A model generated the notes under the pieces. The model was not told where the DNA came from, searched no databases, and saw nothing but the letters and a program-made list of their open reading frames with translations. Source: a virus (taxonomy: Duplodnaviria; Caudoviricetes). Taken from it: a DNA stretch of 64,000 bases. Shown in pieces: positions 6,101 to 57,242 of this stretch. Location: the IMG/VR virus record IMGVR_UViG_3300038679_000051, positions 128,001 through 192,000 of that record; one strand, given 5' to 3'. The position numbers and the translations under genes are program-made. Position 1 is the stretch's first letter. Every line of letters begins with the position of its first letter.

Positions 6101-6930
6101 TTTGGTAAATCCCACCCAATTAAATATGCGAGATATGGTATCAATTGTACTGGTATTTTATTGATCCAATTCACTCCAAGCAATAATTTCTGCTCATCAA
6201 ATATGTCCTGTAATCCATCAGCGTATGCCCGCATCAATTTTACTACTGGGTCGTTAGTACGGTCGACGTCTCCTAAATATATCGCTGGCATGTTATCAAT
6301 CATCATCCGATGGACGTCACCAGGATGTGCCATCAACATCCGAAATCTAGCAATTGCAAATTCATCTCGAATGCAATCAAAATCATTAGTAGACGTTGTC
6401 GATCGAATTTTATATCTACATTGCCACACAAAATAATAATCGTCCTCTGGCAGACCACTGACGCTTATTTTGAAATTGGATAAATCATAATAATCGGCAT
6501 CTTTGTAATATGGCACTCTGCCTATTGTACCCGATCTTAAACGATATTCAAAATAATCGCCATTCACTGCTTCTTCATATGTCTTTGGCGTGCCGTCGGA
6601 AGCATAGAAATTTTGCCCTTCTAGAATGGTATTTAATCTGCTGTCTATAAATTCTTGCGTACCAGGTTCGAAGACATATAACGTCCGTTGTGGAACAAAA
6701 ACCCCAACGTTCTCCGGACCGGCTACTTTAGCTGGTGTAGGCGCATCTTCAATATAAAATTGTAATTCCGACACCGCAGAGTCAGACAAAGGCGTCCCAC
6801 TCATTGATCTAACCCATGGTACGACTAGGATCAATGGCAAAGAGACATCTTGATATCCGGTTCTGGCATTTTGGATGTCAAACCTAAAGAAACTAGGTTG
6901 AAATCTATCAATTGCAGGTGCAACAGGCAT
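3112..6930 (-). CDS. large baseplate wedge protein containing P2 gpI-like (tail protein I) domain
   Basis: 1272 aa. IPVQLIPYLAYLIGWDL...RRAMLRNGVRLQKLKGTRLAISDLFKIFG is the P2-gpI-like motif. Confidence 0.65.
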   Translation of the reverse strand: MPVAPAIDRFQPSFFRFDIQNARTGYQDVSLPLILVVPWVRSMSGTPLSDSAVSELQFYIEDAPTPAKVAGPENVGVFVPQRTLYVFEPGTQEFIDSRLNTILEGQNFYASDGTPKTYEEAVNGDYFEYRLRSGTIGRVPYYKDADYYDLSNFKISVSGLPEDDYYFVWQCRYKIRSTTSTNDFDCIRDEFAIARFRMLMAHPGDVHRMMIDNMPAIYLGDVDRTNDPVVKLMRAYADGLQDIFDEQKLLLGVNWINKIPVQLIPYLAYLIGWDLPNFPRNKDSIRRAMLRNGVRLQKLKGTRLAISDLFKIFGFSIELINLWYSKDGKRFIGPNEPLPPHYSDQKIMTQEKCQTDALVSDYVAAGFGQFSVPLLFRSNDMIAIEAWHVKKDGPIYSQLKDIINQIMSGPESTEDACKNDAAGFPSSKLLNQIIPDQTVIGHSRILVDQKRGAIDEYGTGITPLSKSGISYGHDFNVINVTFDHYIKFNENDALFIFAVYPRTKIILPDSLIDLRSNRFDVNIASQSEDDIQSDLLDFLINFIFKLKAFHSLLRKLTFTQNVLDIYNVTDFCLGADNKQDPNYAGGKLEKPPYFYPPDESADKCKPGTENGIITENQKLRSRVIDGLRAEHIAWKDLDGTHILTPDQEELVNRLSRVPSGKPIGTECQYTQFGQELLKNVDLDYDQVPDLREKVCDDDATVNKCYIGRVVDRLKNERHLRMIDSVRCKPCLLGFGSGVYYTINKKADVLEKGGFLGKLRTDYDEPQPSLRFTDRAYFNEDDQKNNYLAWQRRSLDIQKSNSFFPGHRFITADKLLNDYESKNWKAKPWDYPWPTYDCNGINYDNPLNARLEIGSDGNQHIYFDDAPYRLSGNGITQDIMTFGDHTSTLFVTHKIYMHDELQPGDPRLAITFDQTTTTTETTINDGLHIFQSESQSGEDCIDGHPSEYGTYEYSFDRGFERGGTDDQDLMELLNLPTHDSTGSLPLLFKSGSGILIDESIYRYQHYQGLRNDCGCLDCGGSDANDRQCMIDKMRTANGTIDAHCDQLSVLPKLKLNETFGSCSNINDGSIPDSFRLKDAQTEGSFFFKDNYDTQYEVEYKFYDNRLDILTTTKIPHVWGESPAGEIINGRVFRRGIVTIDRKIIEFYASSYQIISAGGEQRIELIQTSWKCGDKIPLKAETIFGDFFNCGIKEVVEMLISCGTRWANVNVHEDHLVYWPDLIQVGAELYYMVPSSHHQPFYWINVWGNDDGIAVCDATWPGTGTEVTVGHDDI

Positions 6931-6954
6931 GTTCTATCCCCTTTAAAGTATGTT

Positions 6955-7317
6955 TTATAACCAATTAGGTATTGATTTAATCCAATTTTCTGGACACCAG
7001 AAGATCGTATTCTTAACTAATTGTCCGTCATGGTATCTTAAACATACGCGATAATGAACGTGGTCTTTATTGATAATTGTCCCTGGAGAGAGATAAAATT
7101 TATGATCAGCATTATTGAGGTAAATTTTAGTACCAATCTTTAACAAGGGTATTTTGGCTTTTATCTTCTGGTTTGGCATGATCAACATCATTTCATTGAT
7201 TTTCTTAATCCAGAACATTTCGCCACATTTTTGGCAGATAAATGGAAATCCTAAATATTCATGCCATGATTCATTGCGACCCTCTTGTTCGAACTTACAT
7301 TTGGGACATCTAAACAT
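6955..7317 (-). CDS. zinc-ribbon protein
   Basis: CPKC...CQKC at N-terminus; GGAG upstream. Confidence 0.55.
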   Translation of the reverse strand: MFRCPKCKFEQEGRNESWHEYLGFPFICQKCGEMFWIKKINEMMLIMPNQKIKAKIPLLKIGTKIYLNNADHKFYLSPGTIINKDHVHYRVCLRYHDGQLVKNTIFWCPENWIKSIPNWL

Positions 7318-7320
7318 TGA

Positions 7321-7362
7321 TGGAGACCCTCCAGCCGTATATACGGATACGAGGTGAACCTC
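7321..7362. promoter_or_regulatory. three small inverted repeats in divergent intergenic region
   Basis: TGGA..TCCA (7321-7333), perfect palindrome CCGTATATACGG (7335-7346), GAGG-TGAA-CCTC (7351-7362). Confidence 0.35.
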
Positions 7363-7377
7363 TAAAGGGGAACAAGA

Positions 7378-7980
7378 ATGAATAAATCACCATTGGTCCT
7401 TTGCGTAAGTTATATACCACTGTTCATTGCTGACCCAACTAAAAATCACTCAATGAAAGAGATCATCAAATTATTAAATGAGGCCATCGAAAATGTACCA
7501 TGCCCAATTGCTTGCGTGTGGGCACAAATAAATGATAAACACATCCCATGTTTTTTGATCAATAAAGCTAGAGAAATAGTTGACCATATTCTGCTATGGT
7601 CAGAGGATAAACCACATGAATGGTTTAAATTAATTGTTGAACGTGATGTGGCTCATTACGAAGTTGCATTGTTTCCCAACCTAATTAAATCAAAAGAAAG
7701 ACAATTAATTCAATATGTAATGACCAATAATGAAATTATACCGGAAAGTTCCGAACGACAAATTCTCTTTAAACCATTGCATTTCCGCAGTAAAAGCATC
7801 AGCATGATTAACACAATTAATCTTGCGGATCCTTCAATGGTCGGTTTCATCGAATCGGACGGACTTGATTTAAATCAGCTTGACTTAGGCAAGATACCAG
7901 AGCCAATCATGATTGGCCCGTTCGAGATAGACAAAGACCAGAGTCTCAAGACATATTCGAAAGGACTAGAAGATGAATGA
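7378..7980 (+). CDS. hypothetical protein
   Basis: 200-aa ORF with AGGGG SD. Confidence 0.6.
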   Translation: MNKSPLVLCVSYIPLFIADPTKNHSMKEIIKLLNEAIENVPCPIACVWAQINDKHIPCFLINKAREIVDHILLWSEDKPHEWFKLIVERDVAHYEVALFPNLIKSKERQLIQYVMTNNEIIPESSERQILFKPLHFRSKSISMINTINLADPSMVGFIESDGLDLNQLDLGKIPEPIMIGPFEIDKDQSLKTYSKGLEDE

Positions 7981-8133
7981 CATATGCTCCGCAGCAACAG
8001 GTTCTTTGCCGAATGAGTGCTCGATAATTTCCACCCTTGTTCCAGTGAGGAATATCGTCCCATCGTCGCCATCAACGAGTTGTCCCCTGGCATTGTGAGG
8101 GTTGTAGTTACAGAGAAATTGCAAATATAATTT

Positions 8134-8937
8134 ATGAAATTATCGCTATTGTTTGAATCTAACGACATAATTAAACCATTCGGTATGTTTGTCTATCTGA
8201 ATAACGAGTATCCATACTGGGGGAATCCACGCGGTCGAAATAAAACTGTAGAATACGATAAAGGTAAATTTAATAGATATGCCAAACTTGGGTCCTATGC
8301 TGATGAGATTATTGAAGAATTACAGGCAATTATCGAAAAAGGCCATAATACAGACGATGGTCGGTGTGCATTTGCTAGTTTACTTATGATGTTGTATGGT
8401 GTAAGAATAGGCAATGAGGGTTCTGCAGAAGGATATGTTTCGGGATTGAAAAAGAATGAGGGCGAAATTGTCCACACATACGGGACGACCACTTTATTAA
8501 ATAGACATATATCATTTCCCACCGGTGCCATGATGCTTGATTTCCTAGGAAAGGAACAAGTGGCGCATAACATTATTGTTGTAAATGATTTCCTAAAACG
8601 ATATGGAAAATTATATCATGATCCGAACAATCCTGACGAAAAATGGCTGAAAATAGATTATGCCACCCTGTTTAAATTCATCAAGAGAAACATTGGTGAA
8701 CAATTCATACCAAAAGATCTGCGGACGTTTTGTGCAAATATATCTGCTTGGAATTATATGAAGAAAATTCTTGATAAACCTTTAGTTGACACTAAAACAA
8801 ATGCCAAAGCAGAAGTAAGGGAAATAGTCGAGAAGACAGCGAAACGACTTGGTAATACTGTTGGAATATGTCGCAGGGCATATCTTGACCACAGGATGCT
8901 CAATTGGTTCATCGATCAACGTTATGAATCATCGTGA
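8134..8937 (+). CDS. DNA topoisomerase IB (poxvirus/bacterial type), catalytic core
   Basis: Catalytic set present: VRIGNE (R), FLGKEQV (K), PKDLRT (R), LGNT (N for H, bacterial type), ICRRAYL (Y). Confidence 0.88.
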   Translation: MKLSLLFESNDIIKPFGMFVYLNNEYPYWGNPRGRNKTVEYDKGKFNRYAKLGSYADEIIEELQAIIEKGHNTDDGRCAFASLLMMLYGVRIGNEGSAEGYVSGLKKNEGEIVHTYGTTTLLNRHISFPTGAMMLDFLGKEQVAHNIIVVNDFLKRYGKLYHDPNNPDEKWLKIDYATLFKFIKRNIGEQFIPKDLRTFCANISAWNYMKKILDKPLVDTKTNAKAEVREIVEKTAKRLGNTVGICRRAYLDHRMLNWFIDQRYESS

Positions 8938-8939
8938 CC

Positions 8940-9524
8940 TTACATTGCTGCTGCTTTTACATTAATGTCCGGATAGTTTTTAGGCGGAATATAAACACAA
9001 TTCCCTAGGGCTTCTTCTTTCTTTTTACAATATTCCTTGATCAATGACAGCAGATCATTCATGACATTGTCTGGGATGCCCTTCTCGTCTTCACTAGCAT
9101 TAAACATGTCGATCACTATACATTTTCTACAAGTAAGAAATGGAGTATATGGATCGCATGGAACGCATTTCCCAGCTGGTGTTTTGTCTGCTACGCAAAC
9201 TCTAATTTCTGATACCGGTTCATCTTTCTCTATGACCTGCCGATCACCCATGACTAGAAATGACGTATATTTCATTAATTCTGCCGTCATAATACAATCT
9301 ATGTCCGTTGTGATTTGTGCATTCATCCATGTTCCTTGTTGTGTCTTATATATTCTACGCCCGACGTGTGACAGATGCCAACCGTGTGCCCCATACTCAT
9401 CATTTCCTAAGAACAATGTCGTTTTATGTTCCATATTATATGTTTGTAGGCGTGGTATTAGGCCAATATCTTGCAAACACTGCCTTAGTTCTATCATCCA
9501 TGACTTGTTGTCCATTCTCGTCAA
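8940..9524 (-). CDS. hypothetical protein
   Basis: 194-aa ORF, start uncertain. Confidence 0.5.
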   Translation of the reverse strand: MTRMDNKSWMIELRQCLQDIGLIPRLQTYNMEHKTTLFLGNDEYGAHGWHLSHVGRRIYKTQQGTWMNAQITTDIDCIMTAELMKYTSFLVMGDRQVIEKDEPVSEIRVCVADKTPAGKCVPCDPYTPFLTCRKCIVIDMFNASEDEKGIPDNVMNDLLSLIKEYCKKKEEALGNCVYIPPKNYPDINVKAAAM

Positions 9525-10149
9525 TTGCCATGGTTACCCTTGCTCTCGTTCCTTTCATTTCTGGATGGAAATGAAACACATGAATTGGTTTAGATGCCCT
9601 ATAATATCTCTTCCAAAATCCAGAACATCCGACGTTGAATGTTTGGTCCACAATCGTTATTCTACCTTTATATTGATCTAAATTTAGGATTTTCCTGATT
9701 ATTGGTTCTTCTTTTTTCGATTGTTGTCGTTCAATCTCATTTACGATTTCTTGGACCATATCAATAGCTGATGGCCGTATGAACATGCTGCCACCATTGA
9801 TTTTTCTTTCTACTGAGTATGTCGTGACCCCTATGTCTGTAAATTCTGGCATATCAAATTTTATTTGTTGCCATGCATCTAAATCATGCGCCCAGAATGG
9901 TTCGTTCATTCCGTGTTTGAGCAACAATAAAGTTGAGAATGTCTTACTACCGGTTAAGCATCCCCCTGGATTTAAATCCATCTTCATTGCCTTGACGCCC
10001 ATAAATTCAAAATCGAAATTAGTCACCAATATGATTGAATCAGTCGACCAACCAAGTTCGATGCTATTGTCGATTTGTGCCTTCAAATATGATTCGAAAT
10101 AATGAAAGTCTTTCTGCTTTTTAAGATAACAGGTAATCACGTTTTTCAT
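9436..10149 (-). CDS. putative GT-A fold glycosyltransferase
   Basis: IILVTNF...WAHDLDAWQ (DxD)...KINGGSMF...VFHFHP pattern; 4-nt overlap with the GT gene upstream. Confidence 0.55.
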   Translation of the reverse strand: MKNVITCYLKKQKDFHYFESYLKAQIDNSIELGWSTDSIILVTNFDFEFMGVKAMKMDLNPGGCLTGSKTFSTLLLLKHGMNEPFWAHDLDAWQQIKFDMPEFTDIGVTTYSVERKINGGSMFIRPSAIDMVQEIVNEIERQQSKKEEPIIRKILNLDQYKGRITIVDQTFNVGCSGFWKRYYRASKPIHVFHFHPEMKGTRARVTMAIDENGQQVMDDRTKAVFARYWPNTTPTNI

Positions 10150-41386: not shown

Positions 41387-41664
41387 TGGGTCTCTTTGGA
41401 TTTCTTAGAAAAACGCCGAATATTCCTGCCCCAATGGTGATCGAATTACACATCACCGGGTCTTTGGAGATCAAAGGTGACCTACAGCGAGATTACGGCG
41501 AAAAATTTAAGTCGTTGGGAGTTTCCCAAAGAGACGATAGACAAATCAAGTCATCTGAGGGAAAGCTTGCTGACGCCATCGCTGCACAACAACTCACTAA
41601 CCTCAAATTGCAGTTTGAAGGACAGAATACGATTGCTGGTCTTGGCCAAGAAGCGGATCAATAA
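41383..41664 (+). CDS. small hypothetical protein upstream of the actin-like gene
   Basis: AGGAGG SD before ATG 41383. Confidence 0.6.
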   Translation: MMGLFGFLRKTPNIPAPMVIELHITGSLEIKGDLQRDYGEKFKSLGVSQRDDRQIKSSEGKLADAIAAQQLTNLKLQFEGQNTIAGLGQEADQ

Positions 41665-41737
41665 CGTTGAAGAGAAACGTAAACTGGCGGATGTGCTTTC
41701 GAGAATTAGGCGAATTAGCTTTAGGAGCGGAAAAGCG

Positions 41738-42754
41738 ATGAATTTTGGATTAGATGTAGGGACCAAAAACGTGGTATTGTCTTATCGAGATCAAAGTGGT
41801 AAGATAAAAAGACGTCATGAAATCAATGGATTTTGTAAATTAAACAACGGCGATGGATTGTCTAAGCAGTTATTGACGCAGAACGGCATACCGTTCATTG
41901 AATGTAAGGACAATTTAATAGCATTAGGCGCACGTGCTGAGGAATTGTCCTACGCTTTTAATCAGCCATTACAACGACCAATGGCTGATGGAGTCGTAAA
42001 TGGTGATGAAGATGAAGCCATCAACATCATGTCCACTATTATCAGGTCGTTATTACTTGGCGTCATCGGTGGTGATTCGACGGTTCACTACTGCGTACCA
42101 GCCAAAGCTTTAAATGCTGAATTAAATGTTGCCTTTCATCAGAAAGTGGTTCAGATGATCGTAGATTCGGTCTCATCTAAGGGAGTAAAATTAGATGCCG
42201 TCGCCATAAATGAAGCTCGCGCTTTAGCTTTTAGCCAAATACCCGACAAAACCGCAATAGCCGTTTCGTTTGGTGCAGGAATGGTTAATGCTTGTTATAG
42301 TTTGTTTGGTTTACCAGTGTTTGAATTTAGTCTTGTTGGTTCTGGCGATTGGATTGACCGTGAAACGGCACGAGTGATCAAAGGTGAAACTATGACTTCA
42401 ACATGTCGATATAAGGAAAATAAATTGAAGAATAGAAAATTTACGTTGAAAAAAATGCCGGAAGACAATGTTGGGAAAGCATTATATATTAATTATGGCA
42501 TTCTAATTGAGAATGTCGTCAGAGGATTGGTCGACGGATTCATACAAAATGAAGACAAGGCCAGATTAGAACGACCAATGCCAATAATCTTGGGTGGTGG
42601 AACTGCGATGGTCGATGGATTTCAAGATAGATTTCAAGAGGTCATAAATGATTTAGAAGTACCATTTCAAGTTGGTGAAATTAAGATGGCCGACCCAATG
42701 CTTTATGCTGTAGCTGATGGATGTTTGGTTGCTTCTGAATTACATAAAGGATAA
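41738..42754 (+). CDS. actin-fold ATPase (MreB/MamK/ParM superfamily)
   Basis: Phosphate-1 GLDVGTKN, connect-1 INEARA, phosphate-2 SFGAGM, GDWID, adenosine ILGGGT, connect-2 YAVADG; AGGAG SD. Confidence 0.85.
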   Translation: MNFGLDVGTKNVVLSYRDQSGKIKRRHEINGFCKLNNGDGLSKQLLTQNGIPFIECKDNLIALGARAEELSYAFNQPLQRPMADGVVNGDEDEAINIMSTIIRSLLLGVIGGDSTVHYCVPAKALNAELNVAFHQKVVQMIVDSVSSKGVKLDAVAINEARALAFSQIPDKTAIAVSFGAGMVNACYSLFGLPVFEFSLVGSGDWIDRETARVIKGETMTSTCRYKENKLKNRKFTLKKMPEDNVGKALYINYGILIENVVRGLVDGFIQNEDKARLERPMPIILGGGTAMVDGFQDRFQEVINDLEVPFQVGEIKMADPMLYAVADGCLVASELHKG

Positions 42755-42756
42755 TT

Positions 42757-43176
42757 ATGCGGAAGACGTTTGAAATCAATGATCGTCGTTTCGTCGTAAA
42801 CGGGCCGATCGGCCCGTCTATGGAATTAATCAAACGATTGAAAAAATGGAAAGGAAACATATCAAAAAAAGCGCCAGAAACATTGCCTGGTACGTCATAT
42901 GCAATGATGGAATTGTCAAAAGAGAAGATTAAACCAAAATCATCGAAATTAGCAACATTAATCATACCATTTAGTATGAATGTCAAGGATTTGACAGGGA
43001 AGATTCCAAAATCTTGGATTCGTGGATTGGACGGATCTATGGGGCGTTGTAGAGTCTATCATCGTGGCATGTACAAAGGTACAATTAACGTAAAGTCCAT
43101 TGACACTAATACGGTCTCCTGCGATGAATTAAAAAAACAGAAAATCCCAATTTATGTAAGAGGCGTCCACAGTTGA
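42757..43176 (+). CDS. small basic hypothetical protein
   Basis: 139 aa, Lys-rich, directly after the actin gene. Confidence 0.6.
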   Translation: MRKTFEINDRRFVVNGPIGPSMELIKRLKKWKGNISKKAPETLPGTSYAMMELSKEKIKPKSSKLATLIIPFSMNVKDLTGKIPKSWIRGLDGSMGRCRVYHRGMYKGTINVKSIDTNTVSCDELKKQKIPIYVRGVHS

Positions 43177-43183
43177 AGTATTT
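43176..43183 (+). promoter_or_regulatory. putative phage promoter element AAGTATTT
   Basis: 8 nt upstream of the SD-less ATG at 43192. Confidence 0.45.
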
Positions 43184-43191
43184 AATGACTC

Positions 43192-44541
43192 ATGGTTGAG
43201 GAATTTGTTCATCTACACGTTCATTCATTATTTAGCGTTCTGGACGGAATATGTTCGCCCAGACAGTATGTCGAAAAATGCATGGAGCGGAAATGGGGTG
43301 CAATAGCCTTAACTGAACACGGCAACATGGCCTCAATACCAGATCTCTATTTTGCTACGAAGGAATTTGGAATTAAACAAATAATTGGTTGTGAATTATA
43401 TTATAATGATGAACATTTAAAATTTAGAAAAATTGTTGATGCAGGTGGTACGATAGGTGATTTAAAAAAATCCGAAGATTTTGTTATAAAAGATTTAGCA
43501 TCTAGAATAACGCGTAATAGGCACATTACCATATTATGTAAAAACGAAATAGGATATCGTAATTTGTTACAAATAATGAAATGCGCATGGGAGATTGGTT
43601 TTTATTATAGACCAAGAACATGGTTTGACATGCTAGATAAACATCACGAAGGATTAATTATATTATCTGGATGCTTGAATGGACCAATTTCATTTGAAAT
43701 TCGTGAACACATGCGACTGACGAGGGAATATGAAATGCTTGGTGATGTACGTTATAAACAGAAAGCCGAAGAACATCTTCTGACTGGCATAAAATTATTT
43801 AAAAAATTCAAGAAGACATTTGGTGATGATTATTATGTGGAATTACAAATGCCAGGCGTGCCTGATGATGAAGAGGTATTTGCCAAATTACATGCATTAG
43901 CCATACAATCAAAGACGAAAGAAGTAATTACAGGTGACAGTCATTATTTGGAACGCAAAGATTTTATCATCCAGAAACTAATGATGGCTGTCGATCAGAA
44001 CGTTACCATTGATGATCCGAATTTATTCCATGTAAATTCAGATGAACAATTTTTTAAAGATCGTGCTCAATTTAGAGAAACATTCAATTCTAAATCATAT
44101 CGTGACAATTGTTCTATTGAGGATTTTGAACGTGCCTGTGACAACACTCTGGAAGTCGCAGACAAAGTGGTGCCATTTATGCTTGATTCTGAACCGAAAT
44201 ATCCATCTATAGAAAATGCAAATGAAATCCTACGTAAGCGGTGTCATGATGCTCTCAAGATGATGAAATTGGACAAAAAAGAATATGTCGATCGATTAGA
44301 ATTCGAATTAAATAGAATAATAAGCAAAGATTTTGCGTCATATTTCCTAATAACTCAAGACATGACCAATTTTTCTCGATCTCATGGGTTAGTCATAGGA
44401 CCTGGCCGTGGGAGCATAGGCGGGTGTTTAGTGGCATATTTATTGCGAATACATACCGTCGATCCATTAAAATGGGGATTGTCTTTCGATAGATTTCTTA
44501 GTCCTTCACGTGGCGGAAAGATGTTAAAGGTTGTTATGTAA
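43192..44541 (+). CDS. dnaE: DNA polymerase III alpha, N-terminal piece (PHP domain to RFLSPSR)
   Basis: HLHVHS, TEHG, GCELYY, RPR, SGCLNG, YVELQ, GDSHY, GPGRGS, FDRFLSPSR; stops before the catalytic PDID motif. Confidence 0.92.
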   Translation: MVEEFVHLHVHSLFSVLDGICSPRQYVEKCMERKWGAIALTEHGNMASIPDLYFATKEFGIKQIIGCELYYNDEHLKFRKIVDAGGTIGDLKKSEDFVIKDLASRITRNRHITILCKNEIGYRNLLQIMKCAWEIGFYYRPRTWFDMLDKHHEGLIILSGCLNGPISFEIREHMRLTREYEMLGDVRYKQKAEEHLLTGIKLFKKFKKTFGDDYYVELQMPGVPDDEEVFAKLHALAIQSKTKEVITGDSHYLERKDFIIQKLMMAVDQNVTIDDPNLFHVNSDEQFFKDRAQFRETFNSKSYRDNCSIEDFERACDNTLEVADKVVPFMLDSEPKYPSIENANEILRKRCHDALKMMKLDKKEYVDRLEFELNRIISKDFASYFLITQDMTNFSRSHGLVIGPGRGSIGGCLVAYLLRIHTVDPLKWGLSFDRFLSPSRGGKMLKVVM

Positions 44542-44559
44542 ATAAAATGAGAGGATGAC

Positions 44560-44955
44560 ATGGACAACGATAGAATTAGGAAATTAATGATCGAAGCGCG
44601 ACATTCGACTTACGTCTTTTATAAGATGTTGTCAGATGATAAAACCAATGACATAAACAAATCTCTTATGGCACCAATGTTGAAGTGGGTGGACGTAGCC
44701 GATGCATTTCTGAATAATGACGAGAAATTAGCATTGACTGATTTAGAAATGATTATAATTGAACCTATGAAAATGTTGGCTGATGCTTGTTCTGCACGTC
44801 TAAATAAGACTATTGAATCACCAGCGATGGAGAAAATAATTGCAGCGACTGATGTCTTTAAACGGAAAAAAGCGTACGTTGAATACATCAACGAATTGTT
44901 CGTTTCTTTAGAAACGATCACTGGAACGAGATACCCAAGAATAAAGGAGGCGTGA
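44560..44955 (+). CDS. hypothetical helical protein
   Basis: 131 aa; GAGAGG SD. Confidence 0.6.
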   Translation: MDNDRIRKLMIEARHSTYVFYKMLSDDKTNDINKSLMAPMLKWVDVADAFLNNDEKLALTDLEMIIIEPMKMLADACSARLNKTIESPAMEKIIAATDVFKRKKAYVEYINELFVSLETITGTRYPRIKEA

Positions 44956-44956
44956 G

Positions 44957-45352
44957 ATGTATGACATATTGATCAGTGGTAAAAAATCTGCGATTGGCAT
45001 TATGTTTTTAAAGGATCGTCAATTAATAAAAAGCATAAGAATTGTGATTTCTAAACCGGAAAATTCCGACGTTAATAAATCGGAATTATTAGGTCTGAAA
45101 TATGCATTGTTGGCTGTAATAAATAAGATGATTCCACTTAATTTACACCTAAATACATATCCACTTAGGTCATTGTCACCAAGGACAAATCCATCAGTAA
45201 ACAAAGAACTGATCTCAGAATTAAGGGAATTATGTTCATCATTTAAAACGGTAAATTTATTAAGATTGCAAGATCATGAATTAATAAACCAGGTAAAGGA
45301 TTTAGCGACGATCACGGTTGATCTGCCAGTCGGAGCGACGGTTATATCTTGA
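44957..45352 (+). CDS. degenerate RNase HI-like protein
   Basis: NKSELLGLKYAL and NKELISELREL...HELINQVKDLA follow the RNase HI pattern; first and third acidic residues not seen. Confidence 0.5.
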   Translation: MYDILISGKKSAIGIMFLKDRQLIKSIRIVISKPENSDVNKSELLGLKYALLAVINKMIPLNLHLNTYPLRSLSPRTNPSVNKELISELRELCSSFKTVNLLRLQDHELINQVKDLATITVDLPVGATVIS

Positions 45353-45863
45353 ATGATAATTCGCCCGGTTTATGAACTTGACCCATATTCAGTGGTCTCT
45401 GACTTGTTACGTCTTTATTCTTTCCTGCGTATTGTCCGGATAGCCATTTCATTAATCCCGTCCTGTCATATGCTGACGCCATATCATCAATTTCAATAAA
45501 AGTTTCATTGTCATTATAGCCAGTGGCATTTATCGGAAAGATTTCATCCTTATAGACATACATCTGATCTGATTCTGGCAATTTATCAAGCATATTGCGT
45601 GGCCAACTGACGATTGATTTCGTACCAGATGGGACATATAAACCTTTGATTGGTCTACCAATGCTGTCGACTATTGACACTGGTGACAAGAAATCATGGT
45701 CCGATTCATGATGAAATGGGCGTCCATTGTTGATTATGGCGGATTTAACCCATACGATTGGTATTAAACATCTAGGGGCATTTTCGAAATTTTTCATATA
45801 GTATTTTTGAAAAATGATAATAAAAGAATGGTCAGATGTCGTATTGATTGCAGCTAAACGCAT
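45342..45863 (-). CDS. hypothetical protein (start probably ~45797)
   Basis: Lone minus-strand ORF filling the gap between plus-strand genes. Confidence 0.5.
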   Translation of the reverse strand: MRLAAINTTSDHSFIIIFQKYYMKNFENAPRCLIPIVWVKSAIINNGRPFHHESDHDFLSPVSIVDSIGRPIKGLYVPSGTKSIVSWPRNMLDKLPESDQMYVYKDEIFPINATGYNDNETFIEIDDMASAYDRTGLMKWLSGQYAGKNKDVTSQRPLNMGQVHKPGELSFKI

Positions 45864-46209
45864 ACGAAACGATCGTCTGTCGGTCGAGTATGTCCAGCGG
45901 TTGAAATATGAAATTGATCAAATAGAAATGCAGGGCGCTAATGAATATTGGATGGATTTAATTAGAGAAGATAAAAAATTTGATCACAATAAAAACGGTT
46001 TGGTGTTGCCGTTTCTGTTGAATATGACGGACATAGATCCAATTATTTACAAACACATTTATGAACTCGATGACAATGGAATTGTTGGTGATGTGGTTGA
46101 TGTTACGTTGGAAGATGGATCTATGGTTTCGTTACCAGCAAAGGCTCATGTCAAAATTGAATCGTTAAGTAAATTGGTTTCTGATCTTAAGATTGGTGAT
46201 GAGATCTGA
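45814..46209 (+). CDS. DnaE-related fragment (duplicate of pre-palm helices) fused to Hint-like C-tail
   Basis: YVQRLKYEIDQI...LVLPFLLNMTDIDPI parallels YVDRLEFELNRI...LVAYLLRIHTVDPL of 43192; ends VTLEDG...H...DLKIGDEI. Confidence 0.75.
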   Translation: MIIKEWSDVVLIAAKRIRNDRLSVEYVQRLKYEIDQIEMQGANEYWMDLIREDKKFDHNKNGLVLPFLLNMTDIDPIIYKHIYELDDNGIVGDVVDVTLEDGSMVSLPAKAHVKIESLSKLVSDLKIGDEI

Positions 46210-46233
46210 CTTAAGATTGGTGATGAGATCTGA
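46186..46233 (+). repeat. exact 24-bp tandem duplication including the stop codon
   Basis: CTTAAGATTGGTGATGAGATCTGA at 46186-46209 and 46210-46233. Confidence 0.95.
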
Positions 46234-46308
46234 TAGAGTTTTCATCCCAGCAAAAGTCAATGTTGGTTTCATGCCACATTTTTGATTGTTATTATGTATT
46301 CATTTTTT

Positions 46309-46449
46309 ATGAAGATAACGGCAATTAATTTTAGGAAAGGAAAAATTAGGGACGTACCCGGTGATAGTTACAATGTCGGTGGGTTCCAAGTCATTCCAGA
46401 AATTGGGATTCCACACCGAATTGAACGTCACCCAGACGTTCCTGACTAG
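46309..46449 (+). CDS. 46-aa ORF: putative true N-terminus of the DnaE catalytic piece
   Basis: Not in track. MKITAINFRKGKIRDVPGDSYNVGGFQVIPEIGIPHRIERHPDVPD*; GTATT at -13..-9; ends 1 nt before the DIDIDY frame. Confidence 0.6.
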   Translation: MKITAINFRKGKIRDVPGDSYNVGGFQVIPEIGIPHRIERHPDVPD

Positions 46450-48532
46450 TGACATTGATATCGACTATTTGCCTGAAGCGAGAGAGAAAATTAAAGAATA
46501 TATTTCGTCTAAATATGGATTTGAACATGTATGTTCGGTTGGTCTATGGCAATCATACAATTTTAAAATGGCAATGCAAGATGCTGCCAAAGCTCTTGGC
46601 AAAGATAAAGCCCCGGTATTTAAAATAACAAAAACTTTGCCAGACGATTTTGATGATCGACCAATAAATGAAGTATTAAAGGCATTAACTTCGGAACATA
46701 TCAAACAAGAGAATCCAGAATTAAGTGAATTAGCTGATTATTATTCTACTGATGATGGTAAAATGGTCGTAGACATGGCATCAAGGATGACTGGTTTGTT
46801 AAAGACGCAAGGCAAACACGCCGCTGGAATAATCATATCTAATGTCAATTTGTTTGAAACCATACCTATGAGCAAACTTGGCGGTCTGTGGACGTCACAA
46901 TGGACCGAAGGATATTCACCACAATTATCTAAATTTGGTTTGATTAAATGGGACGTGTTGGGACTCAAGACGATGTCCTATATTTGGAAATGCATTAATT
47001 TCATTAAAGAGAAGAATAAAGACATAGGGTTGCCGAAATGTGTCATTTGTAATGGCACTGGCTCTAGCGAATCGGAATATGAGAAATTCGGTGACAAATG
47101 TATGGAATGTAGTGGATCGGGTGTATCGATCGAACACATAGATTTTAATGTCAAAGAAGTATTACGATTAGCTAATGATTTGAAAACTGAATCAGTTTTT
47201 CAATTCGAGACTGATTTGGCCAAATCAATTTTAAAAAAAGGTGGCGTCAAATCTTTTAATGATTTGTTGATTTATACGAGTTTAGGTAGACCAGGGCCAT
47301 TGCCCTTGATTGACGAATATATTGAACGTCGTGATGATAAAAATGAAAAATGGAGAAAACAAGAGCATCCTGATGTTGTTGAATTATTTAAGGATACTTT
47401 CGGAATAGTGGTCTTCCAAGAGACGTTGCAATTATATTGGACAAAGATTTGTGGTTTTACCGTTCCCGAAGCTGAAGCAGCTAGAAAAGCAGTGGCTAAA
47501 AAATGGGGTGAACAACTTGAAAAGGTAATGAAGAAAGCGGAGATTGGTGCAGCGAAAAAAATTGGACATGATGAAGCTGTGAAATGGAATAAACGAATCG
47601 AGACGTTTGGACGCTATGCCTTCAATAGATCACATGCCGTAGCCTATTCGATAATAGCATATCTTTGTTTGTATTTCAAATCAAAATTTCCTGTTGAATG
47701 GTGGGCGGCAGTATTGAGCATATGTGATGATCGCAACAAAATTTCGAATTATGTTATGGTGTCAAGAAATGAAGGCGTCAAATATTCGGCATTACACTGT
47801 GACAATTTGACCAAAGATTTTGTGGTTAGGAACGACGAAATCGTTCCCGGTCTATCTGGCATCAAGGGCATTGGTGATAAGGCAATGGCTAATGTCTTAT
47901 TGAATGCTGGTACGAAATATCAATCGGTTGATCATTTTATTGAGAAGAATGGCAAGAATAAAATATTGATGGAGAGATTGATTAAATTGGGTGCATTTGA
48001 TCACTTATTTCCTAATAGATCTGCGTTATGGATGTGGTATTTATTGAAACATTCGACGTGTAAACAATCTAAGGAAGCTAAATCATATTTTAAAACCAAA
48101 CTTGGAATACCAGAGAAGGGTAAATTGAACATATCGTTTGAGGAAGTGGTAAAATTGTCTCCAAAATGGGGATTGAGGAAGATTCTATTTTTTGAAAAGG
48201 ATTTCTTTGGGTATCATTTCACATCTCCAATGTCTTGTTATAAATTTAGTGGACATACCATCGAGGATGCGGCCGAAACCAATGTAATGGAAGTAGTAAT
48301 ACAAGACAATGAATTAAGGCAGACTAAGACTAATAAGAAATATCTAAAATTATTGGTTACTGATGGGACGACTAGTGCGACGTTGTTGATTTGGGATGTT
48401 GGCATAATAGATAACATTGAGGATGTGTCACCAGGATCCGGTATTAGAGTGGAAGTGAACTGGGATGAAAAATTCAATAGTTATTCACTTAGGAGAAATT
48501 CCAAGATTGTGTTACTTGACAAGGATGATTAA
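46361..48532 (+). CDS. dnaE: DNA polymerase III alpha, catalytic C-terminal piece (palm, fingers, HhH, OB)
   Basis: DIDIDY, GKHAAG, KWDVLGL, VFQFE, GRPGP, FQE, YAFNRSHAVAY, GIKGIG, OB fold. Homology begins at 46451; start uncertain. Confidence 0.92.
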   Translation: MIVTMSVGSKSFQKLGFHTELNVTQTFLTSDIDIDYLPEAREKIKEYISSKYGFEHVCSVGLWQSYNFKMAMQDAAKALGKDKAPVFKITKTLPDDFDDRPINEVLKALTSEHIKQENPELSELADYYSTDDGKMVVDMASRMTGLLKTQGKHAAGIIISNVNLFETIPMSKLGGLWTSQWTEGYSPQLSKFGLIKWDVLGLKTMSYIWKCINFIKEKNKDIGLPKCVICNGTGSSESEYEKFGDKCMECSGSGVSIEHIDFNVKEVLRLANDLKTESVFQFETDLAKSILKKGGVKSFNDLLIYTSLGRPGPLPLIDEYIERRDDKNEKWRKQEHPDVVELFKDTFGIVVFQETLQLYWTKICGFTVPEAEAARKAVAKKWGEQLEKVMKKAEIGAAKKIGHDEAVKWNKRIETFGRYAFNRSHAVAYSIIAYLCLYFKSKFPVEWWAAVLSICDDRNKISNYVMVSRNEGVKYSALHCDNLTKDFVVRNDEIVPGLSGIKGIGDKAMANVLLNAGTKYQSVDHFIEKNGKNKILMERLIKLGAFDHLFPNRSALWMWYLLKHSTCKQSKEAKSYFKTKLGIPEKGKLNISFEEVVKLSPKWGLRKILFFEKDFFGYHFTSPMSCYKFSGHTIEDAAETNVMEVVIQDNELRQTKTNKKYLKLLVTDGTTSATLLIWDVGIIDNIEDVSPGSGIRVEVNWDEKFNSYSLRRNSKIVLLDKDD

Positions 48533-48763
48533 ATGTTATTAGACACCAAGAATGGCATTGTTTGTGATTTGTGTAATAGACCACACAAGAATCAATTCGT
48601 TTATTATTCGATGCGAATGGTAAAAGTGTCTGTGGATGTTGATGCTAAACAAACTATACACACTGATACGGACATTGATCTAGATGTCTGTGAATTTTGT
48701 AAGAAGAAATTAGAGGAGAGGATTTTAGAGGTCTCAAAAATGAGAGGGGTGAATAATGGATGA
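48533..48763 (+). CDS. small Zn-binding protein
   Basis: CDLC...CEFC. Confidence 0.6.
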   Translation: MLLDTKNGIVCDLCNRPHKNQFVYYSMRMVKVSVDVDAKQTIHTDTDIDLDVCEFCKKKLEERILEVSKMRGVNNG

Positions 48764-49091
48764 TCTGACTCCAGAACATTTTGCATTGATCATGGTTGAT
48801 ATTGGCGGCGTTACTGTGGAGGCCAGACCATATGAATGGGATTATGATGGTGATGGCAATCCAATAGTTGCTATGGCATATCGAACGACGTGTCCACATT
48901 GTTCACAATTAATAGAATTCAATGTGCATGATCTACATGACATGATGTTCTATTGTAATGAATGCAATAAAGGAAAGGATATGTGGACGCAGAAGAATAA
49001 TGAGATGTTGATCAATAAATCTTATGATGATGAGCCGATTATTTTCGATTTAATAGAACCGATAAAATCTGGATTGATGGAGATGCCATGA
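48756..49091 (+). CDS. Zn-ribbon protein
   Basis: CPHC...CNEC; GAGGGG SD. Confidence 0.6.
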   Translation: MDDLTPEHFALIMVDIGGVTVEARPYEWDYDGDGNPIVAMAYRTTCPHCSQLIEFNVHDLHDMMFYCNECNKGKDMWTQKNNEMLINKSYDDEPIIFDLIEPIKSGLMEMP

Positions 49092-54097: not shown

Positions 54098-55525
54098 ATG
54101 GACGATCTAACATCATTTCTATCTCAATTGGATTTAGAAGACAGTGACATTGCTATGGATTCTAATGCCTTCGTAAAGATGGCATTCAATGAACCGTCTA
54201 CCTTCAAAAGAATGATGCCATATGTGGATAAATATTATACGACGAAGTCTATGTGGCAAGCGACTGCGTTGGCGATAATACGGAAATTTTATGAGGAACA
54301 TAATGAAATTCCTAGTAGAGGAGTCACTTTAAGGATTGCGAAGGCGAATCTAAAATCAGACGACATAGAAGACTACAATGAACTTGAGAAGAACATCAGC
54401 GAAATCATGTCGCAGTCCGATGTGAAACATTATAGATCAACGATTATTAAATGGTTAAAGAAGCAGCTGTTGTCAAATATGTTGAGCCAATCAAGCGAAT
54501 CTTTGGATGCTGCTGAACAGGGAAACGATGAATATTTCAAAGCATTGATTGATGACATTTCTACTCTCGATAGAATCGAAGCTAGACCGCTATATTTATG
54601 TGCTGATGCTGGTAAATTCCTAGAGAAGGATGAGTCCATAGGTCTGACATGTGGGGTGAGAGAATTAGATAGATATATGAACAATAACGTAGGGCCGACT
54701 TATGGTGAGATAGTGTGTTACATGGGAGGGACGGGCGTAGGTAAATCGAATTTTCTATGTAATGCAGCAGTCAAAGCCATAATGATGAAGAAGAATGTAT
54801 TGTATGTGACGCTTGAAATCCACACTAGACAACTAATATATAGATTGGTGTCTATCGTAGTGGGAATGATGAGAATGACTGGTTCCGATCCAACTCTACA
54901 TGGGGTCACCATTAGTAATTTGAGCGATCATAGAAAGAGATGCATGGAAGTATTAAGAGAACTATCTGCCACATGTGGTGCCGACATTGCCATTTCAGAT
55001 CTGCCTGGCAAAACTCTTACTGCTGAGGGGTTGAGTGGCATAATTGATGATTATCGACGGAATGGTTTTCACCCTGATGTCATCATAGTTGATTATCTAG
55101 ATGAAATGACAACGAAGCACGCTTCATTAAAAGACGGGGATTATTCTAGATTGAAGCACATCGCTAGTGATTTGCGTTCACTTGCCTCGAAACAAAATGT
55201 TTTAGTGATTACGGCAACTCAGACTAATAGAGGTAAGGATGATGACGATGAAATAATTGATCTAAATAGAACTGCTGAAAGTTATGGTAAGAATCATTCT
55301 CTAGATTATGTCATTTCGATCAATCAGCATGAATCCGAGAGACAATCATCTCAAATACGGTTATTTATTGTCAAAAACAGAAACGGTAAAAATAAAGTTG
55401 GAGTGAGGGGTAAAATAGATCTAACGACTCTCTATTATCACGTCACCGGTGAACTAGATGGTAGCGAGAAATCATTAGACAACATATCGCAGGTCAGATC
55501 TGGGGGAGATTTCGATGACGAATGA
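54098..55525 (+). CDS. dnaB: DnaB/gp41-like SF4 replicative helicase
   Basis: GGTGVGKSN, LYVTLE, VIIVDYLD, TATQTNR, KNRNG. Confidence 0.9.
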   Translation: MDDLTSFLSQLDLEDSDIAMDSNAFVKMAFNEPSTFKRMMPYVDKYYTTKSMWQATALAIIRKFYEEHNEIPSRGVTLRIAKANLKSDDIEDYNELEKNISEIMSQSDVKHYRSTIIKWLKKQLLSNMLSQSSESLDAAEQGNDEYFKALIDDISTLDRIEARPLYLCADAGKFLEKDESIGLTCGVRELDRYMNNNVGPTYGEIVCYMGGTGVGKSNFLCNAAVKAIMMKKNVLYVTLEIHTRQLIYRLVSIVVGMMRMTGSDPTLHGVTISNLSDHRKRCMEVLRELSATCGADIAISDLPGKTLTAEGLSGIIDDYRRNGFHPDVIIVDYLDEMTTKHASLKDGDYSRLKHIASDLRSLASKQNVLVITATQTNRGKDDDDEIIDLNRTAESYGKNHSLDYVISINQHESERQSSQIRLFIVKNRNGKNKVGVRGKIDLTTLYYHVTGELDGSEKSLDNISQVRSGGDFDDE

Positions 55526-56133: not shown

Positions 56134-57242
56134 TATATCTCTGTACGGCATTTAAACGTAATGGACTACCAATAATGTCATGTTTATATGGGAATGACAT
56201 AGAGATGATTCCATTGTATTGTGAAAATAATAAATTAAAGACTATTGACGCGAATAAAAAGAAAATTAGTGACCTCACAAAAAACAATCAAGTGATGATA
56301 CTGGATTGTAAGGCACATTTTGATGTCTTCGACATTACATCATCTGAAGTTTATGAGGCATTGCCTACGGCACATATCAGCGACATGGGAATTTTAAATG
56401 ATGTTAAAAAGACGTTGTTGAAATGCATGCATGTGATGACCGACGTGAAGAAACCGTCTTTGTGGCGGAAAACCATAGCTGATGCCGCGAAGATATACAC
56501 AAAATTACAGAACATAAAAATTATGGTTGATGGACAATACGTTCAACCAAAATACTATGTCGACACTTTTAGTGGTAGATCAAGAGCTACCGATTTTCCG
56601 ATTCAAACGACCAATGACAATCTCACCGTTGACGTGGATTTCGATTATTTCATCCATCTTGACTGGTTGTCAGCCGACATGCGCATCGCGTCGATATTAT
56701 CAAATGATGCAGATCTCATATCGTCGTTTGAACGTTCAGATCCATATACTTATCTTTCAGAAACATTAGATTTACCGCGTCATGATTGTAAAACTAGTCT
56801 CTTGGCGGCGATTTATTCGCTCACCATCGATGAACCGATATTACAATGTTTTCCGAGATTTAGAGATTGGATGGATGATACTGTCAAGAAGTTGCGATCT
56901 AATAAACATGCTGATTCAATATTGGGTAGAAGATTTTATATGTCCGATAAGACTAGTGATAAAACTTTATTTAATGCAACCATACAAGGATCAGTGGCAC
57001 ATGCCATGCATCTGGTTTTAAAAAGAGCGTTTGATTCCAGACACCGTAACGTATTTACGGAGTTACAGGATTCTTTGGTACTAATTGCGAAGAAAGATGA
57101 AGTTGGAGATGTGCTTGAGGATGTGCTTGACATCATGCTACATCCATTTGAGGGCGTTTTAGACGACAATCCAACGTTCCCTGTGAGAGTAAGCATAGGC
57201 AAGAAATGGAGAAATTGGAAAAAATATAAGGAATTCAGATGA
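56130..57242 (+). CDS. compact family A DNA polymerase
   Basis: SGRS, motif A DWLSADMR, motif B RHDCKTSLLAAIYS, ILGRR, NATIQGSVA, motif C LQDSL. Confidence 0.82.
   Translation: MIYLCTAFKRNGLPIMSCLYGNDIEMIPLYCENNKLKTIDANKKKISDLTKNNQVMILDCKAHFDVFDITSSEVYEALPTAHISDMGILNDVKKTLLKCMHVMTDVKKPSLWRKTIADAAKIYTKLQNIKIMVDGQYVQPKYYVDTFSGRSRATDFPIQTTNDNLTVDVDFDYFIHLDWLSADMRIASILSNDADLISSFERSDPYTYLSETLDLPRHDCKTSLLAAIYSLTIDEPILQCFPRFRDWMDDTVKKLRSNKHADSILGRRFYMSDKTSDKTLFNATIQGSVAHAMHLVLKRAFDSRHRNVFTELQDSLVLIAKKDEVGDVLEDVLDIMLHPFEGVLDDNPTFPVRVSIGKKWRNWKKYKEFR

Follow-up and report, generated by a model that had tools for sequence, protein, structure and literature searches.

Replicative DNA polymerases are textbook examples of enzymes with a single-chain catalytic core. 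Iyer et al. (2021; PMC7824862) described a minimal DNA polymerase III (Pol III) alpha subunit in the group 2.2 jumbo phages that is divided between a protein with the nucleoside triphosphate (NTP)-binding subdomain and a protein with the Mg2+- and DNA-binding subdomains, and those authors inferred that the two reassemble. In cyanobacteria, as related in later papers, DnaE is encoded by two dnaE genes carrying a naturally split intein (Caspi et al. 2003, cited in PMC3919608 and PMC2677866). Dassa et al. (2009; PMC2677866) described fractured genes, three DnaE loci included, in which a free-standing Vsr-like or GIY-YIG homing endonuclease lies between the halves of a split intein. Interruptions by mobile nuclease genes are further represented, in the accounts of citing papers, by the NrdA of phage Aeh1, split by mobE, and the split gp43 of Aeromonas phage 25 (cited in PMC2677866 and bioRxiv 10.1101/2022.08.31.505936), as well as by T4 gene 39, mobA and gene 60 with its 50-nucleotide (nt) translational bypass (Bonocora et al. 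2011, cited in and extended by bioRxiv 10.1101/2022.08.31.505936). The T4-type element comprises a tail of ∼44 amino acids (aa), a nuclease, a leader of 44 to 45 aa ending in a recoded copy of the host gene, and a cassette with stops or frameshifts (bioRxiv 10.1101/2022.08.31.505936). The locus described here, at positions 43192 to 48532 of a 64,000-nt stretch of viral DNA (hereafter the window, bases 128001 to 192000 of the IMG/VR virus record IMGVR_UViG_3300038679_000051), encodes a DnaE in pieces A, B and C, with a small open reading frame (ORF), S, between B and C (Table 1).

The source record comprises 320,399 bp with direct terminal repeats, and this size and these repeats indicate that the window comes from a jumbo phage. 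Its only C-family polymerase is probably a multi-chain DnaE produced by two superimposed gene splits, as judged from sequence comparisons. Matches to PF07733 in the 320-kb genome are limited to A and C, no other dnaE was found by PF07733, and the family B polymerase model (PolB; PF00136) has no match there. According to the proposed history, an ancient split 1 would have left A with the proofreading PHP domain and the half of the palm that binds the nucleotide, stopping exactly before the PDxDxD motif. The second gene, C', would lie 0.5 to 4.7 kb downstream, past two small genes, g1 and g2, and would consist of a degenerate copy of the A tail followed by the catalytic aspartates and all later domains. 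In a recent and sporadic split 2, a mobile cassette would have cut C' again, here and in seven other lineages, and piece B would be the severed N terminus of C'. The cassette would consist of the tail of B, a free-standing PD-(D/E)xK-type homing endonuclease (still present in the relatives L010 and L011 and lost in the window), S with a recoded copy of the linker, and a short stop-containing insert before the aspartates. The A and C' proteins are predicted to bind each other, with the GS and arginine motifs of A completing the metal site of C in trans; the degenerate pre-palm copy would probably serve as a scaffold or interface.

The domain content places the pieces within the DnaE-type C-family polymerases (Pol III alpha), of which the PHP domain, the palm motifs, and the fingers, helix-hairpin-helix (HhH) and OB domains are all present. 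Piece A matches the Pfam family PHP (E = 3e-37) and positions 2 to 98 of the 260 positions of DNA_pol3_alpha, and piece C matches positions 101 to 260 of the same family, the finger domain (E = 4e-27) and HHH_6 (E = 7e-11). Piece B is placed weakly at positions 13 to 91 of DNA_pol3_alpha (E = 0.047). GRGS and RFLSPSR are confined to A and PDxDxD to C, and no protein carries both. In 58 A-type proteins at ∼50% identity, GRGS (R-G-S), the arginines of RFLSPSR and a GG pair are invariant, as are the PHP ligands H42, H44, D51, H76, E101, H144, C194, D280 and H282 (P0005 numbering). The P-D-x-D-x-D of C' is likewise invariant, and the N-terminal copy in C' has only two invariant residues. The catalytic core does not reside in a single polypeptide; it is distributed over two genes throughout the clade and over four ORFs in the window. 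An earlier reading of the window, made from the sequence alone and here called the sequence-only reading, had proposed a DnaE cut at its active site with a noncanonical C-family architecture. The Pfam placement of A and C and the division of the motifs confirm the cut, and the spread of the catalytic core over separate proteins bears out the architecture.

The separation of A from C' extends across a large group of phages. A search with A returned 1,421 proteins, and the best 120 of these have 419 to 537 aa with PHP and PF07733 only, are 45 to 81% identical and sit on contigs as large as 408 kb; the A-type entries, which number more than 1,400, are sequence clusters. Among longer proteins, all matches of at least 39% identity are A-type proteins that contain one or two inteins and lack finger and HhH domains, and full-length DnaE proteins appear only at 36% identity or less. 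The tail FDRFLSPSRGGxMLxVxM ends every A homologue read. Three relatives (L003, L005 and L006; A 54 to 60% identical) share the order A, g1 homologue, g2 homologue and a single gene C', in which the first ∼85 residues are the counterpart of B and lead in frame through ERHPDVPD-(I/V)DID to the palm, fingers and HhH. The B-like segment is fused in frame to C in 57 of 77 IMG/VR loci found with an alignment-based query (single-protein queries returned none), and A lies upstream in 49 of the 57. The two genes occupy the same strand in the 48 loci measured, 461 to 4,700 nt apart (median, 1,132 nt), and the only single-ORF DnaE genes in the IMG/VR loci are distant ones of 25 to 28% identity. A full HMMER search with the C' of L005 gave the same division: 85 of the 152 proteins analyzed (the returned representative clusters plus three loci-derived C' proteins) are C'-type, without PHP, with PDxDxD ∼90 residues in and without a preceding GRGS. 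A word-based search with the first 95 residues of C' returned only the query itself. In the PHROG coordinates of the full-length family, A covers 42 to 439 and C' begins at 347 or 357, and the nearest DnaE proteins of cultured phages are full length and only 26 to 34% identical. A clade-wide two-gene DnaE, in which B corresponds to the N terminus of C', is regarded as highly probable from these comparisons.

This result revises the view of B as a separate duplicated gene, given that B is the in-frame N terminus of the second gene in the 57 loci and would be set apart here by the mobile cassette. The description of three unrelated genes between A and B holds for their number and fails for their character, as g1 and g2 are conserved syntenic partners of the polymerase genes. 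Iterated hidden Markov models detect g1 at 34 and g2 at 40 of 48 loci, and their orientation is the same throughout. For g1, Pfam and PHROG give no family match. The structure of g2 matches RNase H families in the Atlas (template modeling [TM] scores of 0.79 to 0.84), and the consensus of the g2 family contains no conserved D or E. The g2 protein may be a noncatalytic subunit, perhaps in the place of epsilon on the PHP domain.

Several further interruptions and insertions are found in these genes. In the distant phage L082 (23% identity; positions 4815 to 9340), an A-type ORF is followed by a C ORF that starts at DxD, with no B-like copy, and this arrangement may represent an independent split at the same point. 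The interval from A to C' in L005 (within 5077 to 9574) contains a Mom-like gene, a TnpB (OrfB_IS605) gene and, adjoining the latter, a homologue of the reverse-strand ORF of the window; gene content of this kind marks the interval as a landing zone for mobile DNA. The closest relative, P0002 (L008, positions 196 to 1746; 81% identical to A), has its A broken exactly between GPGRG and C by ∼97 residues of an intein N-terminal part (Intein_splicing, E = 1.5e-4) followed by a stop, which may be a split intein at the GS motif. The A-type proteins P0124 to P0162 carry canonical LAGLIDADG inteins at two sites, before C in GC-E(I/V)Y and inside the PHP sequence NDC-HY, some of them at both. The C' of L003 has an additional full intein in the fingers. 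Piece C has a zinc-ribbon insert of the CxxCxGxG type between the palm and finger regions (47036 to 47134, residues ∼226 to 258 of the ORF from 46361), with weak Pfam matches to Anti-TRAP and DnaJ_CXXCXGXG; this insert occurs in L005 and L003 and is absent in L006.

The two genes overlap in content. Alignment of 67 C' N termini with 80 A tails by hhalign gives a probability of 98% (E = 2e-13) over 81 columns, in agreement with the suggestion in the sequence-only reading of a degenerate second copy, put there at ∼80 residues, without GRGS and RFL; the copy corresponds to the last ∼85 residues of A. A three-way alignment with full-length DnaE shows that C' begins ∼50 residues before the GS loop and that A ends on the three residues (V/I-S/T-M) preceding PD in the full-length protein. 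The same placement of these three residues led to the rejection of the idea that the tail of A is a dead copy of the DxD strand. Throughout the family, the copy in C' has a 7-residue deletion exactly at GPGRGS and contains nothing resembling RFLxPxR. Both genes, as far as alignments show, carry one copy of the same ∼85 to 100 residues with complementary losses of motifs.

The trans assembly of the active site was modeled with the natural pair of contig L005, P0005 residues 36 to 481 (A) and P0122 residues 1 to 550 (C'), each with its family alignment. The complex reaches an ipSAE interface score of 0.85, compared with 0.00 for the best control; the mark for this score is reached by 58 of 80 solved complexes and by 2 of 110 mismatched pairs. 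Contacts agree to at least 95% among the three runs, and the predicted local distance difference test (pLDDT) score of the partner is at least 88. The modeled contacts join residues 422 to 444 (GRGS) and 465 to 481 (RFL and tail) of A to residues 80 to 96 (PDVDID) and the B-like helices (29 to 69) of C'. Folded alone, the C' of an intact relative has a mean pLDDT of 83, with 93 to 95 in the B-like helices and values below 50 in the DxD strand (residues 86 to 94). This model aligns with residues 396 to 907 of E. coli Pol III alpha (2hnh; Z = 22.2; root mean square deviation of 3.6; 489 residues aligned), and its C terminus aligns with OB folds (Z ∼9). The complementary motif losses, together with the placement of the motifs of A against the DxD strand of C, support an active site completed in trans, and such a functional enzyme is judged likely.

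Three points weigh against this assignment. Full-length DnaE structures are already solved, and these contacts are intramolecular in them; the complex score may reflect the memory that the model has of these structures and would then show likeness, not binding. The modeled pair stems from a relative at 60% identity, not from the window's own proteins. The canonical pre-palm position may belong to either copy, that of A or the B-like one. The B-like helices overlay E. coli Pol III alpha from residue 327 onward in one alignment (2hqa) and, with their high pLDDT when folded alone, appear topologically complete, which together with the presence of all nine PHP ligands in A could suit a different division of labor: B (with S) and C would form a self-sufficient polymerase without PHP, in which the degenerate copy completes the palm, and A would be an independent proofreading or repair nuclease. 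This division, also raised in the sequence-only reading, is improbable. The B-type copy has lost the nucleotide-binding motifs across the family and A keeps them, and the invariance of GRGS and RFLxPxR in A at ∼50% identity is hard to explain without dNTP binding. A also stops exactly before PDxDxD, and the DxD strand of C', disordered when modeled alone, receives the motifs of A in the complex model. Assembly of the active site in trans from A and C, the other possibility named at the outset, fits the invariant motifs of A, the PDxDxD of C, the lack of a full-length dnaE and the complex model.

In the window, the second gene is itself interrupted. Frame 1 carries B to a TGA at 46207; a 24-nt copy repeats the stop, and a TAG is next. 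Past an AT-rich spacer, the frame of B regains homology with L003 in S, which ends in ...IGIPHRIERHPDVPD-TAG, with the stop at 46447 to 46449. At the junction, CCT GAC TAG T GAC ATT GAT, piece C reads DIDIDY one base out of the frame of S, and GAC ATT GAT ATC GAC (DIDID) begins exactly at 46451. Removal of 7 nt restores PDVPD-IDIDY as in L003. The last 11 residues of S (HRIERHPDVPD) match the linker before PDxDxD in uninterrupted C' proteins, and the ∼54-residue tail of B is not DnaE. This tail and the presence of S in the frame of B are features beyond those in the sequence-only reading. In the C' of L003, the counterparts of the B tail and S (∼95 extra residues in all) form a single uninterrupted insert, without a stop or a gap.

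The split form is found in eight lineages: the window, L010 (with L092 and L093), L039, L011, L013, L090, L094 and L095. The B-type ORF ends at a shared point (..GDE[LI][TV]) in L010, L039, L011, L013, L090 and L094, the six of the seven other lineages in which this end is readable, as the contig of L095 starts at S. In the seven other lineages, S starts with Met-Lys/Arg/Ser-Ile, has 45 to 48 codons and ends at a stop inside PDxDxD, directly after PD. The junctions read GAC TAG T GAC in the window, GTT-T-GAC in L013, ATA-TA-GAT in L039, L010 and L011, ATA TGA ATT in L090, ATA TGA ATA in L094 and ATT TAG CTT in L095. In total there are six versions, with 1, 2, 6, 6, 6 and 7 extra nt, all placed at one codon position; they occur in the eight lineages and in none of the 57 fused loci. 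When the extra bases are removed, the canonical PDxDxD[FYL]xP spacing returns in every split lineage. Ratios of nonsynonymous to synonymous substitution rates (dN/dS) of 0.06 to 0.24 indicate purifying selection on S; in the core and tail of B, dS is saturated between lineages and no dN/dS is obtainable. Silent sites differ less in S than in the host part of B, and this low silent divergence, with the purifying selection, fits a cassette moving between phages. A tblastn search of phage records with S gave no match.

The relatives L010 and L011 carry a 300-aa reverse-strand ORF with a helix-turn-helix between B and S. This ORF matches DUF7487 (E = 1e-9, over the Pfam cutoff), a TnsA-like PD-(D/E)xK nuclease (E = 5e-5, below the cutoff) and homing-endonuclease families of PHROG (E ∼1e-6). 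Uninvaded alleles of the L010 lineage exist in L099 and L100. Compared with L099, L010 has 1,140 nt inserted in place of 21 nt, between flanks of 2.5 kb each that are 99.1 to 99.3% identical. Across the DxD codons, from GIPH to ∼40 nt past the aspartates, a tract of ∼90 nt shows dense, mostly synonymous changes and a 2-nt insert; the recoding of this tract is, by sequence, the signature of a co-converted target region. A cassette origin of the break between B, S and C is very probable on these grounds. It is weakened by the lack of an endonuclease gene in the window, which has only a 99-nt spacer with the 24-nt duplication, and the cassette origin rests on the relatives. The duplication lies at the endonuclease site of the relatives and may be the scar of an insertion or deletion.

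A tail, an endonuclease and a short Met-started piece make up the layout of fractured genes, DnaE loci included (PMC2677866), and the B tail and S might accordingly be read as a functional split intein whose two halves join B to C by trans-splicing, like those of cyanobacterial DnaE and the fractured genes. The B tail matches, over its final 20 residues, the N-terminal block of the real inteins of this family (hhalign, 78%; E = 1.7e-5; 20 columns), and the Atlas structural neighbors of B include intein-bearing fragments (TM scores of 0.35 to 0.40, a weak lead only). A working intein is nevertheless highly improbable here: the start of the tail carries no conserved Cys or Ser in any lineage, the end of the insert reads GIP-H and not HN plus Cys, Ser or Thr, S has no similarity to the C-terminal intein blocks (F/G), and neither added piece has a Pfam match. 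L003 keeps the same ∼95 residues in the protein as a contiguous insert, and a stop or frameshift separates S from C. Two other candidates were also rejected. No Rfam family is found in 43000 to 49000 even at an E value of 1, apart from a chance snoRNA match, which rules out a group I intron between the pieces. An alternative genetic code fails as TGA and TAG both occur at the breaks yet end ordinary genes, and two junction types need a change of frame.

The decoding of the gap between S and C admits more than one reading. In six of the eight lineages, C has no ATG, GTG or TTG upstream of the catalytic aspartates, and the stop of L090, L094 and L095 is in frame and immediately precedes I/L-D-x-D. 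With no usual start for C in these six lineages, ribosomes coming from S would have either to pass the stop or to begin again at ATA, ATT or CTT. The last codon ahead of the stop is found again behind it, as an exact repeat in the window (GAC/GAC), L094 (ATA/ATA) and the L039 type (overlapping ATA) and as a near repeat in L090, L095 and L013, and this recurrence favors a hop or shift. The site of L013, GUU UGA C, resembles the shift site of prfB. S could thus plausibly, though short of probably, be joined to C by a ribosomal hop from GAC to GAC over TAG-T. A more specific proposal, by analogy, is that the 7-nt insert and its 1-, 2- and 6-nt counterparts represent a programmed short-range hop derived from the homing cassette, with the S leader aiding take-off; this proposal is tentative. 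If true, the hop insert would shield the most conserved dnaE DNA from the cassette nuclease, and bypass elements like T4 gene 60 would gain in these cassettes a second and independent natural family, located in the active site of a multi-chain replicative polymerase.

A hop is disfavored by the RNA structure at the eight junctions, which is no better than that of shuffled sequences (z of −1.6 to +2.0), and by the near-matching codons at three junctions. The frame relation of S to C is also free, with 0, +1 and +2 all seen, as would be predicted if S and C were decoded separately. Translation might accordingly terminate after S and restart immediately for C, giving four chains (A, B, S and C) with no recoding, and the short insert would merely destroy the endonuclease target or place the stop and start. 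An AUG is available for C in both L013 and the window: in L013 the ATG overlaps the stop (ATGTTTGA), and the window has a CTG in the same geometry (CTGACTAG) as well as an upstream ATG at 46373 with a GGTGA-like site. The in-frame versions carry ATT or ATA, both weak start codons, after the stop, and the junctions show no stimulatory RNA structure. Restart is possible but, from the sequences, rather doubtful. It lacks ATG, GTG and TTG in the six lineages mentioned and would need a CTT start in L095. A single base change would give ATG, yet none of the three in-frame versions has one. The resemblance of the post-stop codon to the pre-stop codon (ATA/ATA, ATA/ATT, ATT/CTT and GAC/GAC) is not needed for restart, and removal of the insert restores the exact PDxDxD spacing in every case.

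The breaks are real sequence, as separate assemblies are identical. Over 4,427 bp, the window shows 100% identity to a JGI contig of a different sample, and across 43100 to 48600 it is likewise identical to Logan contigs from two runs (groundwater and coal; depth of 22 to 29); the samples with identical sequence may include the source sample of the record. In run X5, one base is missing at 46201 from a contig of low depth, probably by error. Assembly error as the origin of the breaks is ruled out by the JGI and Logan contigs. Megablast against phage records gave no match.

Three disruptions within 250 nt (stops, the 24-nt duplication and the 7-nt frameshift) might also be taken to mean that the second gene is broken and decaying in this phage and that replication depends on the host Pol III or on a phage enzyme resembling a family A polymerase (PolA). 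A weak PolA-like ORF is present (∼56844 to 57212; E = 6e-9; 373-aa frame), as is a gene for a DnaB-type helicase a few kilobases downstream of the locus (∼54641 to 55393; E = 2e-18), and a beta-clamp gene (PF00712) was not found in the genome. With the weak PolA-like gene present, DnaE may not be the sole polymerase of the phage. Decay is very improbable, in view of the 693-residue open frame of C, which extends back to GTG 46361 or ATG 46373 and keeps every invariant residue. Eight divergent lineages have the stop of B, the start of S and the gap at matching positions, S is under apparent purifying selection, the invaded allele of L010 is found in several samples alongside its uninvaded sister, and the window sequence is identical in separate assemblies at the depth given above. 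An intact dnaE elsewhere with these pieces in decay was the outcome expected to overturn the multi-chain DnaE; no other dnaE was found, and the dN/dS values of S are low.

Table 1. Positions of the polymerase pieces and associated features in the window
Feature	Position	Strand	Description
Piece A, 449 aa	43192..44541	+	PHP domain and first half of the palm with GRGS and RFLSPSR; from Pfam, homologues and three-way alignment
End of A	within 43192..44541	+	Family-conserved tail SRGGxMLxVxM, just ahead of the PDxDxD position
g1, small helical protein	44560..44955	+	Conserved member of the A-g1-g2-C' operon
g2, RNase H-fold protein	44957..45352	+	Conserved operon member; acidic catalytic residues not conserved
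Variable reverse ORF, 173 aa	45342..45863	-	Overlaps the start of B; homologue in L005 alone
Piece B	45814..46209	+	Degenerate pre-palm copy (45814-46044), C-terminal extension of ∼54 aa (46045-46206) and stop
Exact 24-nt tandem duplication	46186..46233	+	Includes the stop codon of B; Tandem Repeats Finder, period 24, 2.2 copies
ORF S, 46 codons and TAG	46309..46449	+	Putatively cassette-derived N-terminal extension, then HRIERHPDVPD (11 residues)
Stop-containing 7-nt gap	46447..46453	+	GAC (46444-46) TAG T GAC (46451-53)
Piece C	46451..48532	+	PDxDxD strand, remainder of the palm, thumb, fingers, HhH and C-terminal OB fold

The reverse-strand ORF between g2 and B has no family match in Pfam or PHROG. 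Directly upstream of A lie an actin-like gene (41477 to 42754; Pfam Volactin in the relatives) and a small ORF (42757 to 43176), both of which are syntenic in L003, L005 and L006.

The proposed arrangement would mean that a very large clade of uncultured big phages (more than 1,400 A-type clusters) has the metal-binding aspartates of DnaE on one protein and its nucleotide-binding motifs on another. Such a clade would offer a natural system for the study of trans completion of a Pol-beta-like palm and for the engineering of split C-family polymerases. It would also show selfish nucleases fracturing essential genes at their most conserved codons. The natural set of alleles, with invaded and uninvaded forms at 99% flank identity and six gap versions, makes the hopping of short stop-containing gaps testable.

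Among the known systems, the NrdA of Aeh1 and the gp43 of phage 25 resemble this locus as essential replication enzymes cut by a mobile nuclease gene; their pieces, according to the papers that cite them, function by noncovalent assembly aided by tails that the element added. Their cuts fall between domains, whereas both cuts described here lie immediately before the catalytic aspartates, the older one fixed in the clade with a duplicated overlap. The cyanobacterial DnaE, as summarized in the citing literature, shares the feature of two genes whose products must unite, but it is cut at another site, and trans-splicing restores a single chain. Here, the cut between A and C' has no intein parts, and the tail and S at the cut between B and C lack splicing nucleophiles. 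The fractured genes share with this locus a phage-like replication gene that is cut, a PD-(D/E)xK-type endonuclease between the parts, peptides added at both ends and the loss of the endonuclease in some copies. In contrast to the fractured genes, the pieces added here are not demonstrable intein halves and cannot splice, the endonuclease of L010 and L011 is on the opposite strand, and an extra stop-containing gap occurs ∼35 codons into the downstream piece.

The T4 element was compared with the cassette by using the sequences of T4, UoN_LG358_1 and 50AhydR13PP. Like mobA and gene 60 of T4, the cassette has an upstream extension of ∼45 to 55 residues, a homing endonuclease and a leader of ∼46 codons with a unique part and a recoded host copy. 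The stop in both directly follows a codon that recurs at the point of resumption, within DNA for a catalytic acidic motif (DADHDG in T4 and PDxDxD here), and copies with the gap but without the nuclease exist in both. The cassette differs from the T4 element in its host gene (dnaE versus topoisomerase), its gap of 1 to 7 nt compared with 50 nt (20 nt in one clade), its nuclease family and the lack of a take-off hairpin at the junctions. Comparisons by hhalign of S with the gp60 leader (E = 0.13) and of the B tail with the gp39 tail (E = 0.016) are better than cross controls (0.26 to 0.55) but fall short of significance. By analogy, the cassette appears to work like the T4 mobA/gene 60 element, and it is not filed as a member. 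In the topoisomerase of Aeromonas phage AP1 (L107; MT713136.1), the counterparts of the gp39 tail and the gp60 leader form a contiguous in-frame insert in an unsplit gene, a parallel to the contiguous insert in the dnaE of L003.

No description of a PHP-bearing, overlapping two-gene DnaE was found in the literature searched. Split 1 has its nearest precedent in the split Pol III alpha of the group 2.2 phages, which is divided at the same structural boundary as the enzyme described here. The group 2.2 enzyme consists of a core without PHP or other DnaE domains, encoded by distant genes alongside a family B polymerase (PMC7824862). Unlike this enzyme, the DnaE described here is of full size, with PHP, fingers, HhH and OB domains, and its genes lie 0.5 to 4.7 kb apart in an operon with g1 and g2. 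Its two halves overlap by ∼85 duplicated residues with complementary loss of motifs, in a genome without a PolB match.

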